Notes: generated by a model not told the origin, from the sequence alone. Positions 11,249-18,160 are shown, counted from the stretch's first letter. The stretch is 32,000 bases of DNA from Promethearchaeota archaeon (GCA_016933055.1 JAFGBS010000004.1:120001-152000), one strand, 5' to 3'. Program-made: numbers and translations.

Positions 11249-11620
11249 ATGATAAACTTTCTCGCAGAAGAGGAACTCGAATATAAGAATTACACAATTA
11301 AATGTGGAATTACCGCTTTAGATAAAGGGTATCTTATATTAATCACCGATCAAGCACAATACGGTATTGGAGAGGTAGTTTTAGGAACACCTTCGATGCT
11401 TGAGGGTGGAAAACCTATCAGCTCACCAGCGATGATATTCGGTATTAAGCATAATATCCTTAGTAAAATTATCGCTGAACGTTCTTCAGTAAAATTCAAT
11501 CAACCATGCTTAGTGTTATTACATTTACAACAACCCGGAATACGTTCTGATATCCAAACAAAAACTGTTGTGGACTGCCTTAATAAATGTCTTGACAAAG
11601 TGACACATGCTCAGAAATAA
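11249..11620 (+). CDS. Hypothetical protein, possibly PAC3/PAC4 (proteasome assembly chaperone)-like
   Basis: 123 aa. Strand/helix pattern YLILIT...GIGEVVL...IFG...LSKIIAE...PCLVLL resembles PAC3/PAC4 by eye only. Confidence 0.6.
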   Translation: MINFLAEEELEYKNYTIKCGITALDKGYLILITDQAQYGIGEVVLGTPSMLEGGKPISSPAMIFGIKHNILSKIIAERSSVKFNQPCLVLLHLQQPGIRSDIQTKTVVDCLNKCLDKVTHAQK

Positions 11621-11765: not shown

Positions 11766-14700
11766 TTGACATACATTAAACGGATTGTGATGACAGGATT
11801 CAAATCCTTTGGGGAGAAAACGGTTTCCATTAAACTAGCACCCGGATTTACATGCATTATTGGGCCTAATGGAGCTGGCAAATCTAATGTTATAGATGCT
11901 TTATGTTTTGCATTAGGTCGAGTAAGTAAGAAAACTATGCGAGCTAAATCCCTCAGTGATCTTATCTTTGCGGGTACAAAATCCCTTAAACCAGCGACAT
12001 CAAGCATTGTAAAGTTATATTTTGATAACTCTAATAAAGAGTTTCCGTATGAAAGTGATGAAATCGAGGTCGCTCGAACTGTAAAAGTTAAAGGAGGCTC
12101 AAAATTCACATTAAACGGTCAAACTACTACCCGAGAACAAATTTTAAACATTCTTGCTCAAGCTAATATTGATCCAGACGGTTCAAATCAGTTTATACTC
12201 CAAGGGAAGATCGTTGAGTTAACCCATATGAATGTAATTGATCGCCGTACTTTTATCGAAACTTTGATCGGATTAGAGAAATACGATAGTATGAAAGAAT
12301 CTACTTTTAAGGAATTAGAGAAAGCAGATAGGGATTTAGGTAAATTTGAAGCCATCTTTAAGGAAGTAACCAATCAGTTAAAGAAATACGAAAAGGAGAA
12401 AAATGATGCCCTACGATGGAAGGAACTGGATGATAAACTAAATCAATTAAATGCGGAATTAATTGCTCTGAAAATCGAAAAATTACGCAATGAAGAAAAG
12501 GAACTTGAAAGTAAAATTGACGAGATCTCGGTCCTAATTAAAGATCTGGAACAAAAACGGGATCGACAAAAAGAAAAAATTGATCAAGAAAATTTGGTGA
12601 TGTCCCAACTAGAAGGACGTCTTAATGAGAAAAATTCAGAACGAGAAATCATTGAAGAGGCATTATCAACGTTAAAATCTGAATTATCATCTAGAGAAAC
12701 GGAAATAAAACTGGCAAAGGATAGTATCACAAAATTAGAAGAACGAAAAGAGAAACTAGTAAATCAACAGGAACCACTAGAACCCAACCAAACCTATGAT
12801 GGTTTAATTACTATCTGTAACAAGGAAATAGAAGATCTTAAAAACCAGATCAAAGAAAAACAAGCTGCTGAAGAAGAAACCTACACAACAATTAAAGAAA
12901 AAGAGTCGGAAATAGCAACCATTGATGATGAAAAAAGTAATTTAAAAGCTGAAATTTCAAGTCTGAAGCAAGAGATCTCCTCTAATAATGCAGAAATTAA
13001 AATCTTGAAAGAGAATATCAAAAAATATAAAGAAACTCTTAAAGAAACAAAAGAAGATCTGAAAAATCTGAAAAAGGGTAAAGAAAGTATTGAGGAAGCT
13101 GTTCAAGAGGTTCAACAGGAATTGGATACTATTGACGAAGGTATTCGTTCCTTAAAGAAACAAATCGAGAATGAACAAGCTAAACAAAAGGAATTAGAAA
13201 CCAGTATTTCGGAACAAGAGGGAAAAGAATCAGGCATTAAACAACAAATTTCTGATTCTCAAGCGAGAATCTCTTCATTGGAAGCCGAAGATCGTCTTTA
13301 TACTGACCGGGTAAACGATTTGGAGAAGAAAATTAAACAACTGAAAGAAGATTATGAGCGAATTTCTGGTGGAAAAAAGGTTGAAGAAGCTTATCGTGCC
13401 TTAAAGGACAAGGAAACCAAAGCGCGAGAAGAAATCACCATTATCAAGAAAAAAATAGAAGATATAACTGAAAAGCAAAAAAAGGAAGAAAATGAGAAAG
13501 AACAAAATGAACTGAAAAGGAGATCATTGGAAAACGAAGTAACCGATTATAAAACCTGGTTATCGGGTGTACAAGCTGAGATCACCTTGAATCAACGGAG
13601 TTTAAAAAATTTTCAACGGGAGAAGTCCACTTCTGAACTCACAATGAATTCTGTAGAAAGTGAAATTAGTAAATTAGAGGATCAATTGAAGATAGCAACT
13701 AAAAACGCAGAATCTTCCAAAAAACGAATTGATAATTTGGAAAGTGAACGTAAAATTCTAACCGAAAATGTGAAAACAGCAGAAGAGGAATATGAAAATT
13801 CAAAAGTAGAGTTAGATAGCATCTTACAAATTCTCACCACACTCACCCAATTTATTGATGGAGCGGTTGGGGAGATTAAATCTGATATTCAAAATGCCAG
13901 TGAAACTTCATTAAATTCCTCCATATCCAATTTTCGAGATTTATTTGATGACATCATGGAAATTATCAAACCCTTGGGAGAATTAGGAGATGACGATACC
14001 TCGAAAATAAAAAATGAAATAAATCCTATGATGGAAACCATCAAGTTGTTTACTGAAAATGTGGATGATTCCTTAAGAGATATGATTAAAGAAGTTCGAG
14101 AAGCTAACGACGTTGCAATCCAGCAATCCACTAAAAACTTCGACCAATTGATTGCAGATTTTATTGACATAATTGAGGATACAAACCTTTCTTTGAAGAA
14201 ACTAACGATGTTCAAAGCTTCTGAATTACATAATCAACTTGAAGAGGTCAATAATGAATTGCATAAGTATACGGCTAAAGCAGCGGAAGAAAATGCAGAA
14301 ATTTCGAAATTTAATACTCTTTGGGAAGCAAAACAAAATGAGTATGAAACTTTAAGAAAATCCTATCAATCTTTATTGAGTGAGACTGAGCAATTTGAAA
14401 ATAAATTGAAAAATCTTGAAAAGGACCAAATTGAAAAAGAAAAATCTCTCCAAAACGCAATCACTAAAATTAAAGAAATTGATACCAAGGAAGCGCAATC
14501 CAAGGAGAATTCAGAATCCTTTTGGAAAATACAAAAAGAATGGAATCAGAAACTGGATGAAAGTATTACTAATCTCAACACAGTACAAAATGATATAAGA
14601 GAATTACGGGATGTCCAACGCTATTTAGATGAAATCGATGATATTGAAGTAGAAATTCAAACTATTCAGAAAAACGTGGAAGGAAAGAAAAATCTCATTA

Positions 14701-16187
14701 GTACTGAAACCCAAACTATAACAACATTACGAGAGGAATTAACAAAACAAGAAAAAACTATTGAGGCATTTAAATCAAAACGAGATGATTTTTGGAAAAA
14801 ACGAGAAGAAATTGATTCTAAAATCGAACAAGAAAATCAAACTCGCAATGAAGTATTAGAACGAATGCGTGGTTTACAAAATGTTAAGCGTCTAATGGAT
14901 GAAATAAAACAATTAGAACAAGAAGAATTAGATGCAAACGCACGCATCGATGAAATTAAAGATAAAAACACAATTATTGAGGATGAAATTACCCAATTAA
15001 ATGAACAAATCCAGAAAAAAGAAGATACTCTCAAACATCTCAGACAAGAAAAAGATACTTTTCAGCAGAATCTAAAAGAGTATAGTAAACTCATAAGTGA
15101 ATTGAACGCACACTCTCAAGAAAAACAGAACCGATTAAATAATTTATCATTAATGAAGTCCCGCGATTTGGAAATCCACCAAATTGAGGAAGAAATCGAT
15201 GAAATTGATATCTCTATTGGAGAAATGGATACAGAAATTCAAGAATTGTATCAAAAAGTAACGGAAAAGGAAGAAGAACGGACCTTAAAAAATGAAGAAA
15301 TTATAAAAATAACAACCGAGCGGGATGAATCCTGGGAAAAGCAAAAACAATTCCGGGATGAACTGGGTGAAATTACCTCACAACTCTCTAAGGAAATGGC
15401 AAATCTCGACACCTCAAAAAACATACAATCTGGGATTACTAACAAAATTGAAGAACTTTTCGAGCAATCCAAGGAATTTGGAAGCATCCCTCCTGTTCCT
15501 CCCAAAGAGACGGTGACTACGATCAGTGAGAAAATTCAAAAAACGAAAAATGACAAAACTGCTTTGGAACCAGTAAACTTGAAAGCCATTGAGTATTATG
15601 ATGAAGTTCGGGAACGATTTGATGAAATTGATATGAGAAGACAAACCTTACAACGTGAAAGGAAGGCAATACTGGATTCAATTGAAAGAATAGAATTAGA
15701 AAAAACACGGACCTTCATGAAAGCCTACCATGAGATCAATCGACATTTTAGCGGTACTTTTCAAAAGTTATCCCCAGGGGGATCCGCAAAAATGATTTTG
15801 GAACGACCTGATAAACCCTTTGAAGGTGGAATTCAGATTGAGGCTCGTCCTCGAGGAAAAAAAATTTCCTCTTTAGACATTCTATCGGGTGGAGAAAAAA
15901 CGCTAGTAGCCTTATCTTTTATTTTTGCGGTTCAAACACAATTTCCTGCACCCTTTTATGTAATGGATGAAATTGATGCCGCATTAGATGGACCTAACGT
16001 GCATCGTGTTTCTACTGTGATAAAAGAATTTGCAGATCAATCCCAATTTTTGGTAATAAGTCATCGTGAAGAAAATATTATGAACGCAGAAATGATTTAT
16101 GGCGTTTCCCAAACAGACGGATTAACGTCGATTTTTAGCGTTGATTTAGAAAAAGAAAAACAACGAATCGGACAAGAAACCGAGTGA
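11766..16187 (+). CDS. smc: SMC ATPase (condensin Smc-like), 1473 aa, atypical: no recognisable hinge
   Basis: GFKSF, Walker A GPNGAGKSN, FILQG Q-loop, EPVNLKAIEYY, signature LSGGEK, Walker B/D-loop YVMDEIDAALD, VISH. TTG start preceded by GAGGT. Followed by scpA and scpB. Confidence 0.95.
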   Translation: MTYIKRIVMTGFKSFGEKTVSIKLAPGFTCIIGPNGAGKSNVIDALCFALGRVSKKTMRAKSLSDLIFAGTKSLKPATSSIVKLYFDNSNKEFPYESDEIEVARTVKVKGGSKFTLNGQTTTREQILNILAQANIDPDGSNQFILQGKIVELTHMNVIDRRTFIETLIGLEKYDSMKESTFKELEKADRDLGKFEAIFKEVTNQLKKYEKEKNDALRWKELDDKLNQLNAELIALKIEKLRNEEKELESKIDEISVLIKDLEQKRDRQKEKIDQENLVMSQLEGRLNEKNSEREIIEEALSTLKSELSSRETEIKLAKDSITKLEERKEKLVNQQEPLEPNQTYDGLITICNKEIEDLKNQIKEKQAAEEETYTTIKEKESEIATIDDEKSNLKAEISSLKQEISSNNAEIKILKENIKKYKETLKETKEDLKNLKKGKESIEEAVQEVQQELDTIDEGIRSLKKQIENEQAKQKELETSISEQEGKESGIKQQISDSQARISSLEAEDRLYTDRVNDLEKKIKQLKEDYERISGGKKVEEAYRALKDKETKAREEITIIKKKIEDITEKQKKEENEKEQNELKRRSLENEVTDYKTWLSGVQAEITLNQRSLKNFQREKSTSELTMNSVESEISKLEDQLKIATKNAESSKKRIDNLESERKILTENVKTAEEEYENSKVELDSILQILTTLTQFIDGAVGEIKSDIQNASETSLNSSISNFRDLFDDIMEIIKPLGELGDDDTSKIKNEINPMMETIKLFTENVDDSLRDMIKEVREANDVAIQQSTKNFDQLIADFIDIIEDTNLSLKKLTMFKASELHNQLEEVNNELHKYTAKAAEENAEISKFNTLWEAKQNEYETLRKSYQSLLSETEQFENKLKNLEKDQIEKEKSLQNAITKIKEIDTKEAQSKENSESFWKIQKEWNQKLDESITNLNTVQNDIRELRDVQRYLDEIDDIEVEIQTIQKNVEGKKNLISTETQTITTLREELTKQEKTIEAFKSKRDDFWKKREEIDSKIEQENQTRNEVLERMRGLQNVKRLMDEIKQLEQEELDANARIDEIKDKNTIIEDEITQLNEQIQKKEDTLKHLRQEKDTFQQNLKEYSKLISELNAHSQEKQNRLNNLSLMKSRDLEIHQIEEEIDEIDISIGEMDTEIQELYQKVTEKEEERTLKNEEIIKITTERDESWEKQKQFRDELGEITSQLSKEMANLDTSKNIQSGITNKIEELFEQSKEFGSIPPVPPKETVTTISEKIQKTKNDKTALEPVNLKAIEYYDEVRERFDEIDMRRQTLQRERKAILDSIERIELEKTRTFMKAYHEINRHFSGTFQKLSPGGSAKMILERPDKPFEGGIQIEARPRGKKISSLDILSGGEKTLVALSFIFAVQTQFPAPFYVMDEIDAALDGPNVHRVSTVIKEFADQSQFLVISHREENIMNAEMIYGVSQTDGLTSIFSVDLEKEKQRIGQETE

Positions 16188-16194
16188 TTTGCCT

Positions 16195-17211
16195 ATGGGT
16201 AAAAAAACAACAACTAGTTCAAATTCAAAAAATTCTGCAGATTCTAATCAGTCTGGGACTAGTAATGACGCAGATTCAAAGAATAAAGAAAATCCTACCG
16301 GGAAAACTAAATCTTCGAAAAAGAACGTAAAAAAACATTCTGAAAATAACTCTGTAGAAATGAATGAAAAATCAGACAAAATAGTAAAAGAAGTAATAGA
16401 AGCTACCAATGATATTATAGAGAAAAAACAAAAAGAAGCAGAAGCAGAGGGGAAAACCGAACTTCCCGAGAAATTTTGGCAACAAGACGAGTGGAGAGTT
16501 TTATTAGATCCCAATCTTGTGAAATCCGATCAGATTACACAATATGATCTCTCGGCATTAATTACAGAATTCACAAATAAAATGTTAACTCAAGATTTAG
16601 TGGATTTCCGAATAAGTGGTATGGCGATCTATTCTACGGCAAAATTACATCATCGGAAAATACGAGATGTAATTGATGAAGAAGAACAGATTCAAATCCG
16701 CGAACTCCGGGATAAAGCGAGGAGAGAGATTCCTAAGGCAATGCCACAACCAATAAGGGAACCTCTTAAAATCGCTACCCGAGATGAATTATTCGATGCC
16801 ATGCGTGCTGCCATTATAGAGACCATGCAAAAACGGGAATTATTACGAAGAAAACGTATTGCACGGGAAAGTAAAAAAGCGGAATTAAAGATAGTTAAAT
16901 CGACTAACAAGTTACCTCTGGAAATTTTAAAACACATAATGGGTAAAGAGCGAACCGTAGAACAAACTTTGGATTATTGGTTTGATAAAATACGTTCACA
17001 AATTAAAAATAACGGAGGTAAACAGACAACTTACGATGAAATGTGTGAAAAAGTTATTGCTGCTGAAATTATAGATTCTTACGGGCAACGTTTGAAAAAT
17101 ATTGAATTGTTTCTGTCTCTGCTTTTTTTAAGTACAGCGGGACGTATAATGATTGACCAAGAAACCGATTTTGATGTAATAACCATTACAATACCACGAC
17201 ATATTTTATAG
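16195..17211 (+). CDS. scpA: Kleisin ScpA with long low-complexity N-terminal extension
   Basis: N-terminal domain YDLSALITEF...DFRISGMAIYSTAKLHHRK; TRDELFDAM; C-terminal winged helix LFLSLLFLSTAGRIMIDQETDFDVI. Directly downstream of smc; alternative TTG start at 16189. Confidence 0.85.
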   Translation: MGKKTTTSSNSKNSADSNQSGTSNDADSKNKENPTGKTKSSKKNVKKHSENNSVEMNEKSDKIVKEVIEATNDIIEKKQKEAEAEGKTELPEKFWQQDEWRVLLDPNLVKSDQITQYDLSALITEFTNKMLTQDLVDFRISGMAIYSTAKLHHRKIRDVIDEEEQIQIRELRDKARREIPKAMPQPIREPLKIATRDELFDAMRAAIIETMQKRELLRRKRIARESKKAELKIVKSTNKLPLEILKHIMGKERTVEQTLDYWFDKIRSQIKNNGGKQTTYDEMCEKVIAAEIIDSYGQRLKNIELFLSLLFLSTAGRIMIDQETDFDVITITIPRHIL

Positions 17212-17221
17212 GGGTATATAT

Positions 17222-18160
17222 ATGACGGAAAGAAAAAAAGAAGAACAAGTCAAACATGAATCTGAATCTAAAGAAGATAAAATAGAGGTATCATCACAAA
17301 ACGAAGATGTGCAAGTCGAATCAAAAATGGATATTTCAATTAACCGACCTGATGCTATAGAGCGCGTGGGTGAGGAATCCCTAGAAGAAGATAGAGAATT
17401 AAGTTCTGAAGATATTGAAAATATTGACTCTTTATTAGATAATCTTGAGGAAGATGAAGAGAATTCAATAGAACGAGAATTAGATAAAGAGCAAGACGAT
17501 GAGGTTAAGGTAATATCAGTAAAAGACTTAACCGAAAAGACAATTAAACGTAATACGATTGAAGCTGCTTTATTAGCGGCACAGAGACCAATCTCCATAG
17601 AAGAGATCAGCATTAAATTGGATTTATCAAAAACTGAAATCGAGAAGCTCATACAAGAACTAGCAGAAGACTATATGGATCGAACAACGGCAATCGAAAT
17701 CGTACAAATTGGTGAGGGATATGCAATGCAAATCAAGCCTGAGTATACTGAGAAAATCGTAAAATTTGCCTCGGGAGGTTTAATTCCAAAAGCAGTTATG
17801 CGAACTCTTACCATAATCGCTGTGAAGCAACCTTTATTAAAATCCTTATTGGTAAAAATGAGAGGGAGTACAGCATATGAGCACTGTAAATTTCTAATTG
17901 ACCGTGGATATGTTACATCATATAATAAAGGACGATCAAGCGTTTTGGAAACCACAGATCAATTTGCAGACACTTTTGGGCTATCTAGAGACACCGAAAC
18001 CTTGAAAAAACAACTTATTGATCAATTAGACATTCAAGCTATTGAAGAATCCCCAGAAGAAAACGAGGATTCAGAATCACATTATGAGATTGAAGAAAAA
18101 ACAGAGCTGCAAGAATCAGAATTATCTGATCCTAATGACTTATCAAAGGAAAAAGAGTAA
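17222..18160 (+). CDS. scpB: KITE subunit ScpB with acidic N- and C-terminal extensions
   Basis: IEAALLAAQRPIS, IEIVQIGEGYAMQIKPEY, TLTIIAVKQP, MRG, TTDQFADTFGL. Confidence 0.93.
   Translation: MTERKKEEQVKHESESKEDKIEVSSQNEDVQVESKMDISINRPDAIERVGEESLEEDRELSSEDIENIDSLLDNLEEDEENSIERELDKEQDDEVKVISVKDLTEKTIKRNTIEAALLAAQRPISIEEISIKLDLSKTEIEKLIQELAEDYMDRTTAIEIVQIGEGYAMQIKPEYTEKIVKFASGGLIPKAVMRTLTIIAVKQPLLKSLLVKMRGSTAYEHCKFLIDRGYVTSYNKGRSSVLETTDQFADTFGLSRDTETLKKQLIDQLDIQAIEESPEENEDSESHYEIEEKTELQESELSDPNDLSKEKE

Follow-up and report, generated by a model that had tools for sequence, protein, structure and literature searches.

The stretch analysed here, 32,000 nucleotides from a Promethearchaeota archaeon (GCA_016933055.1 JAFGBS010000004.1:120001-152000; "the window" below), carries the gene of a long chromosome-organising SMC protein whose arm contains tandem repeats both before and after its apex. 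We call these two halves of the arm the N strand and the C strand; nucleotide positions are counted in the window and residues in the translation from the TTG start. The features of the gene are the following.

11766..16187, + strand: SMC gene, an open reading frame (ORF) of 4422 nt with a TTG start, encoding 1473 amino acids (aa)
12606..12896, + strand: N-strand unit N1, aa 281-377, 97 aa, head-proximal
12897..13190, + strand: N-strand unit N2, aa 378-475, 98 aa
13191..13484, + strand: N-strand unit N3, aa 476-573, 98 aa, putative antiparallel partner of C1
13833..14177, + strand: apex region in the place of a hinge, aa 690-804, helical throughout, with a direct repeat inside it at offset 69 and a chain reversal at aa 739-765
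14523..14792, + strand: C-strand unit C1, aa 920-1009, 90 aa, beginning at the invariant W920
14793..15062, + strand: C-strand unit C2, aa 1010-1099, 90 aa
15063..15332, + strand: C-strand unit C3, aa 1100-1189, 90 aa, the most diverged unit, head-proximal

The translation keeps the SMC head motifs intact (Walker A GPNGAGKS, signature LSGGEK, Walker B FYVMDEID), with an ABC-type (ATP-binding cassette) head divided between the N and C termini. PF02463 spans aa 3-1451 with 140 bits, and TIGR02168 is passed (587.7 against a cut-off of 567.35) while TIGR02169, the archaeal SMC equivalog, is failed (622.7 bits against 729.4). The PF06470 hinge was absent at E<=1 from the protein, from its aa 640-900 segment and from the homologue of Lokiarchaeum ossiferum (P0025), although the same Pfam run found it in canonical Asgard Smc at E about 1e-32. 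An earlier inspection of this DNA made without database searches, the sequence-only reading, had called the protein an SMC, which is right for the heads; it is, however, a hinge-less paralogue of canonical Smc and not canonical Smc itself. In a head-domain tree it falls, together with the shorter relatives described below, separately from canonical Smc with a support of 100 in the Shimodaira-Hasegawa approximate likelihood-ratio test (SH-aLRT). A complete genome of the same family (G210) encodes both the long hinge-less SMC and a canonical Smc of 1205 aa that aligns end to end with other Asgard Smc (G210:C1:1711500-1716300, L044). In the window's own genome, which is 91% complete, we found no strong candidate for a canonical, hinge-bearing Smc; its sole hinge match is marginal (22.7 bits) and lies in a 1139-aa SMC-like paralogue on another contig (G000:C5:39556-42885, - strand). 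A search with the long SMC gave additional matches in about ten of roughly 75 genomes of the same order; these may be canonical Smc too, as was confirmed for G210 only.

The protein belongs to a family of nearly fixed length. Its 120 homologues, at 43-82% identity, are every one 1461-1505 aa long (the long class), and those with names come from Promethearchaeota/Lokiarchaeia-type Asgard archaea, L. ossiferum among them. Aligned with MAFFT, the 121 long-class proteins, which range down to 43% identity, show zero indels in either arm; indels are confined to the termini and to positions past residue 740.

The C strand was described by the sequence-only reading as three modules of exactly 90 residues at 14523-15332, which corresponds to aa 920-1189. 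Its anchors (SESF-W, RDDF-W, KDTF-Q, RDES-W) lie exactly where it placed them, at W920, W1010, Q1100 and W1190, and the internal motif it noticed recurs at starts aa 947, 1037 and 1127. C1, C2 and C3 align without a single gap, in L. ossiferum and in the short class as well. Ungapped identity is 25/90 for C1 versus C2, as counted by hand before, 19/90 for C2 versus C3 (the hand count was 18/90) and 22/90 for C1 versus C3; the 25 identities of the first pair are scattered across the entire unit. When the C arm was scanned against itself at offsets from 20 to 199, 90 ranked first and 180 second (z about 4), with the offsets that differ from 90 by multiples of seven trailing well behind both. A self dot-plot, one of the checks proposed with the original claim, was made with the profile of the 121 homologues and shows five diagonals that stand out (1.15-1.47 against a background of at most 0.85): one in the C arm at offset 90, the strongest in the entire protein, three in the N arm (97, 98 and 195) and one in the apex region (69).

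The same units were compared with a null that preserves the heptad pattern and is granted the correct register and spacing. In 5000 such shuffles of the single sequence the score of C1-C2 was never reached (z 5.1, 0/5000), while the pairs with C3 stood at z 2.1 (p about 0.02); with profile columns the values are z 6.0 (0/5000) and z 2.6 (p 0.004-0.005). All three pairs therefore score above the shuffles, the comparison that the sequence-only reading had named as able to refute it, and each in-register pair outranks all 713 other 90-residue windows of the arm. With hhalign, a unit profile against the family profile gives scores of 76-82 for C1 and C2 (E 1e-10 to 1e-11) and of 40-43.5 when C3 is involved (E about 4e-5). 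The top matches of each C unit are the other two, at full length and in exact register; other coiled-coil segments give at most 37.5 inside the protein and up to 48 against canonical Smc arms. On these comparisons of sequence C1 and C2 are clearly homologous, and the repeat in C3 is weaker but real; since unrelated coiled-coil profiles reach 48, C3 is accepted on its register, the shuffles and the orthology described below, and not on its score alone. A search for tandem repeats at the DNA level gave none relevant to the arm units, which indicates that the duplication is old.

The N strand has a repeat of its own: three tandem units of 97-98 residues over aa 281-573, with a period of 97/98/195 and with higher scores than on the C strand. 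N2 and N3 are the closest pair (hhalign 91-94, E 4e-13), N1 scoring 63 with N2 and 53-56 with N3. The one-residue length difference among these units sits in a Gly/Pro loop, and the unit alignment places its indels at the second of the loops listed below. We also slid a 90-residue window along the protein and recorded by hhalign the best non-self match of each position. For windows starting at aa 230-590 this match always lay 97, 98 or 195 residues away in either direction, and for those starting at aa 840-1170 always 90 or 180 away, with scores of 47-87 over both periodic strands; the period is thus constant over more than 300 residues per strand. Candidate flanking units N0 (~aa 183), N4 (~aa 574), C0 (~aa 830) and C4 (~aa 1190) are at background in ungapped tests. 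Weak in-register hhalign matches (score 45-46) exist for aa 575-661, and windows starting at aa 230-260, 560-590 and 840-870 still choose the periodic offsets. The segments aa 183-280, 574-661, 830-919 and 1190-1279 are therefore possible older modules, not established ones, and the entire arm may consist of about five older modules.

Arms of normal length lack this signal, whose presence there would, according to the sequence-only reading, have refuted its claim. Our set comprised eighteen canonical Asgard Smc (1165-1210 aa) from genomes of the same phylum, and both of the sequences scanned against Pfam bear the hinge (E about 1e-32). The profile dot-plot of the eighteen has no outstanding diagonal (maximum 0.59), and the window scan gives 31-47 at scattered offsets, often on the opposite strand. 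Looking for the ancestor of the units in canonical arms with the unit profiles returned just background (28-48), some of it on the wrong strand. Placing the extra residues by hhalign of the long family against canonical Smc was also dropped: coiled coil will align with coiled coil at any position, which makes the arm part of the alignment arbitrary, and the hinge of the canonical proteins ended up opposite coiled coil.

A second class of proteins differs from the window SMC by one unit per strand. P0140 (1296 aa, labelled Sigynarchaeota), one of the matches of the apex search described below, aligns with it head to head, lacking aa 482-578 (97 residues) and aa 848-924 plus 948-960 (90) by MAFFT, or aa 376-473 (98 residues) and aa 850-926 plus 946-958 (90) by hhalign; the C-strand deficit is in both cases made of 77 and 13 aa. 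The shifting placement of the N-arm gap between the two programs is to be expected of tandem repeats. P0140 is joined by eight more clusters of 1290-1304 aa, giving nine distinct short-class clusters, and their apex is the same as that of the long class. Full-length proteins of intermediate length were not found in the homologue or apex searches, truncated pieces aside. The expectation that orthologues should differ in steps of about 90 residues per strand is thus borne out by a sister class shorter by 97-98 residues on the N strand and by 90 on the C strand.

Each length class is monophyletic in the head-domain tree, and the two are sisters (SH-aLRT 96 and 100). Profile mapping makes N1 and N2 of the long class collinear with N1 and N2 of the short class, N3 of the long class also matching N2 of the short; on the other strand C2 and C3 of the long class are collinear with the two short C units, the first of which is matched by C1 of the long class as well. 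Unit trees, in which L and S denote the long and the short class, separate LN1 and SN1 from LN2, LN3 and SN2 (SH-aLRT 99), and LC3 and SC3 from LC1, LC2 and SC2 (SH-aLRT 100). By these trees the head-proximal units (N1 and C3) are orthologous between the length classes and the other units form one group, so that the first duplication predates the split of long and short. Within the two groups of three, LN2/LN3/SN2 and LC1/LC2/SC2, the best inner split has an SH-aLRT of 45. When N1 is mapped to C3, N2 to C2 and N3 to C1, the unit trees and the rank order of distances mirror each other across the strands. Strands relieved of both duplications would be ~345-375 residues long, near the canonical arm length.

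Each unit also carries a discontinuity at a fixed place. The loops of the N strand and the motifs of the C strand are as follows; heptad slips were located on the family profile by following how its 3.5-residue hydrophobic period shifts in phase, and the loops are AlphaFold2 predictions.

12765..12794, + strand: predicted N-strand loop 1, aa 334-343, containing Pro and Gly, with a +1 heptad slip
13071..13091, + strand: predicted N-strand loop 2, aa 436-442, KKGKES, site of the unit-alignment indels
13368..13379, + strand: predicted N-strand loop 3, aa 535-538, SGGK, with a +1 heptad slip
14604..14636, + strand: motif LRDVQRYLDEI, aa 947-957, one-residue slip of C1 centred near aa 953
14874..14906, + strand: motif LQNVKRLMDEI, aa 1037-1047, slip of C2 near aa 1042 and AlphaFold2 kink at aa 1037-1038
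15144..15176, + strand: motif LSLMKSRDLEI, aa 1127-1137, slip of C3 near aa 1135 (1132-1138)

Heptad periodicity continues throughout the arm. On the C strand the heptads are perfect except for one one-residue slip per unit, at the conserved motif, which accounts for the unit length (90 = 13 x 7 - 1); on the N strand slips were found near aa 343 and 538. L1037, N1039 and I1047 of the second motif and G536 of loop 3 are invariant across 39 homologues. The AlphaFold2 model of the long class (aa 170-1300, 39 homologues, mean predicted local distance difference test score, pLDDT, 78) is helical throughout with one chain reversal, consistent with a long intramolecular antiparallel coiled-coil arm, and has two 92-residue helices separating the N loops; further breaks, near the head, fall at aa 1239-1249 and 1267-1273. 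In the model of the short class (pLDDT 79) a single 92-residue helix separates two N loops, and confidence drops at the expected C-strand slips. From the matching helices between breaks (92 residues on the N strand, 90 on the C strand) and from the distances to the apex we infer that each N loop lies opposite a C-strand slip, which would give the arm three evenly spaced discontinuities affecting both strands. The elbow-like breaks suggested by the sequence-only reading find partial support in these slips and in the three N loops and single C kink that AlphaFold2 predicts; any bending at them is conjectural.

Taken together, these results probably mean that the arm of this hinge-less SMC paralogue is segmented, having arisen by old tandem duplications that were matched on its two strands. 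A module would consist of a 90-residue C stretch with its slip at L-x-x-V-x-R-x-x-x-E-I, paired to a 97-98-residue N stretch made of a 92-residue helix and a 4-10-residue Gly/Pro loop. Three such modules would follow each other in tandem on each strand, N1 facing C3, N2 facing C2 and N3 facing C1 if distance from the apex is the guide. The first matched duplication would have taken place on both strands before the 1480-aa and 1296-aa classes split, and a second change, of exactly one module per strand, would separate the two. The coiled coil of one module would be about 13 nm long, roughly a single period of the superhelix; a gain or loss of whole modules should therefore keep the rotational register between head and apex, a possible functional reason for the pattern. 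The sister clade having exactly one module fewer per strand, SMC arm length appears to change here in whole-period steps. The proposal that whole-period duplications lengthened the arm thus finds support in the matching N units, in the short class with one unit less and in the mirrored trees.

Several observations weigh against this account. Each step requires two independent in-frame duplications about 1.3 kb apart, and an intermediate changed on one strand was not seen among the homologues recovered. C3 rises modestly above the heptad-preserving null, and its hhalign score lies within the range of unrelated coiled coil. The short-class alignment holds nine sequences, in which one of the two expected C-strand slips passed the threshold. 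The pairing of N with C modules rests on distances from a predicted apex and on matching segment lengths, and that module number bears on function in the long/short family is likewise something we infer. Finally, the unit trees are compatible both with a last step in which the long lineage gained a module per strand and with one in which the short lineage lost it.

This last point leads to the alternative with the best claim, which we consider nearly as credible as its opposite: that three modules are the ancestral condition and that the 1296-aa clade has lost one from each strand, in which case only the older duplication lengthened the arm. Reciprocal monophyly of the two classes and the poorly supported inner trichotomies are as expected from it. 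N2-N3 and C1-C2 are the most similar pairs, which fits a duplication near the split and speaks for a gain, but such a duplication is compatible with a loss soon after, and nothing here is decisive. Natural lengthening, as first proposed, would then hold for the older duplication, and the last step may be either a gain or a loss.

Convergence is a much poorer explanation, and we regard it as improbable. If a break were needed in each superhelical turn, or if a partner bound every 13 nm, this or another periodic constraint of structure or binding could impose similar motifs every 90-98 residues without any duplication, and it is true that the best-conserved unit positions cluster at the discontinuity motif and the Trp anchors and that C3 is weakly similar elsewhere. 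Such a constraint would not, however, readily yield the unit-wide identities of C1 and C2 with a profile E of about 1e-10 and no gaps, a short class that differs by the clean excision or insertion of one unit per strand, or unit trees that show orthology of particular units across both classes; and canonical Smc arms, which share the superhelical geometry, have no such signal. That the repeats are a chance product of low-complexity, heptad-patterned coiled coil is the least credible idea of all: unrelated profiles do reach 48 by hhalign (E about 1e-5 to 1e-6) and single-sequence diagonals at multiples of seven score well too, but no heptad-preserving shuffle matched C1-C2, no other arm window attains any of the three in-register scores, the period does not drift along either strand and an independent clade differs by exactly one period, which effectively rejects chance for units 1 and 2 and leaves it a small residual for unit 3 alone.

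In Bacillus subtilis, resized Smc proteins are viable with a period of 91 residues, near the superhelical period of ~99 residues, and natural Smc arm lengths have modes at 238, 341 and 515 aa, with about 100 residues from one mode to the next (Burmann et al. 2017, Mol Cell, PMC5344682); the periodicity of about 91 residues cited by the sequence-only reading is thus the reported one. The B. subtilis protein shares with ours an antiparallel coiled-coil arm between an ABC-type head and an apex, and its period fits the natural step observed here (C strand 90 residues, N strand 97-98, mean 94). A difference of ~91-99 residues per strand, as a period-tuned arm should show between length classes, is what we found. 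Burmann et al. worked with engineered resizing and length histograms and reported no tandem modules homologous in sequence; the window family, unlike B. subtilis Smc, has recognisable repeats on both strands, with discontinuities of their own, and has no hinge.

The SMC gene lies in an operon with the two genes that follow it.

16189..17211, + strand: ORF of 340 aa in the kleisin (ScpA) position between smc and scpB, conserved in the short-class operon
17222..18160, + strand: ScpB, the kite subunit (PF04079 E 7e-34; TIGR00281 94.4 against a cut-off of 89.2)

A short-class locus (L051) has the same arrangement of SMC, an ORF of 404 aa and ScpB, and the two middle ORFs are 36% identical (E 4e-46). 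The 340-aa ORF has no significant match in Pfam or NCBIfam, libraries by which its kleisin identity is unconfirmed; PF02616 (ScpA) aligns over its full length with the 404-aa homologue, weakly (E 8.4). It may be a highly diverged kleisin.

Canonical archaeal Smc-ScpAB has the same order of head, arm, apex, arm and head, the same ScpB neighbour and heads about 30-48% identical. The canonical protein (TIGR02169/PF06470, 1165-1210 aa in Asgard archaea) has a hinge and no periodic arm repeat, whereas the window SMC is 270-310 aa longer, hinge-less and under the TIGR02169 cut-off. Rad50/SbcC and RecN are SMC-like ATPases with long antiparallel coiled coils and an apex that is not a hinge. The window SMC differs from Rad50/SbcC in having ScpB and not Mre11 as its partner and in an apex devoid of the zinc hook: no CxxC occurs in the apex region. 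Rad50 models give it 70-127 bits against cut-offs of 700-1087, and its heads score as SMC. Tropomyosin offers a coiled coil of near-equal sequence periods aligned with the superhelix, in which deletion of a whole period is tolerated (PMC5344682). It is, in contrast, a parallel two-chain coil with ~40-residue periods tied to actin binding; the arm of the window SMC is a single chain folded back on itself as an antiparallel hairpin, and any step must therefore be matched at two sites far apart in the gene.

The apex has few relatives. Its direct repeat gives a profile diagonal 690->759 of 1.36, and AlphaFold2 predicts the turn at aa 739-765 with low pLDDT. When aa 640-900 was searched against 1.84 billion representatives just 32 relatives were returned, members of the long/short SMC family and a few non-SMC proteins. 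The latter (P0126, P0130, P0133 and P0141-P0145) are 920-1180 aa long and have an apex-like domain near the N terminus, of which P0133 and P0141 each have two copies; their C-terminal tails are rich in lysine, and that of P0141 resembles histone H1-like HC2. The apex module may thus exist outside SMC proteins.

A broader proposal, which we put forward tentatively and hold somewhat less likely to be right than wrong, is that Lokiarchaeia-type Asgard archaea carry a distinct SMC-kleisin-kite class in which a helical apex replaces the hinge and the arm is made of equal segments of ~13 nm with conserved two-strand discontinuities and changes by matched whole units. Should the discontinuities prove to be joints, the protein would be an SMC with several elbows and a reach (about 65 versus 80 nm) set by the number of modules, and nature would have run an experiment on how SMC function is governed by the length and period of the arm. 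Modules duplicated or deleted in matching fashion on antiparallel strands would be a concrete natural route between allowed SMC arm lengths, the sister clades being fixed at two and at three clear modules, with no other variation of arm length inside a class. In the literature that could be searched, which most subscription journals lie outside, we found no account of duplicated SMC arm modules or of a hinge-less or long-armed Asgard SMC, and no description of a route between allowed arm lengths in nature. What the family provides for testing is two natural length variants, modules with defined boundaries and three evenly spaced discontinuities that may be joints. It also draws attention, in the archaeal lineage closest to eukaryotes, to an SMC that has ScpB as a partner and no hinge.

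Two smaller observations concern the 5' side of the gene. More than 30% of database homologues align without the first eight residues (window 11766-11792); the TTG start restores the canonical SMC N terminus (M-x-Y-I-K-x-I before G-F-K-S-F), and the shorter homologues therefore probably have mis-called starts. Upstream of smc, an ORF of 123 aa (window 11249-11620) has a weak match, under the cut-off, to PF21758, a bacterial proteasome-assembly-chaperone-like family (E 1e-4).

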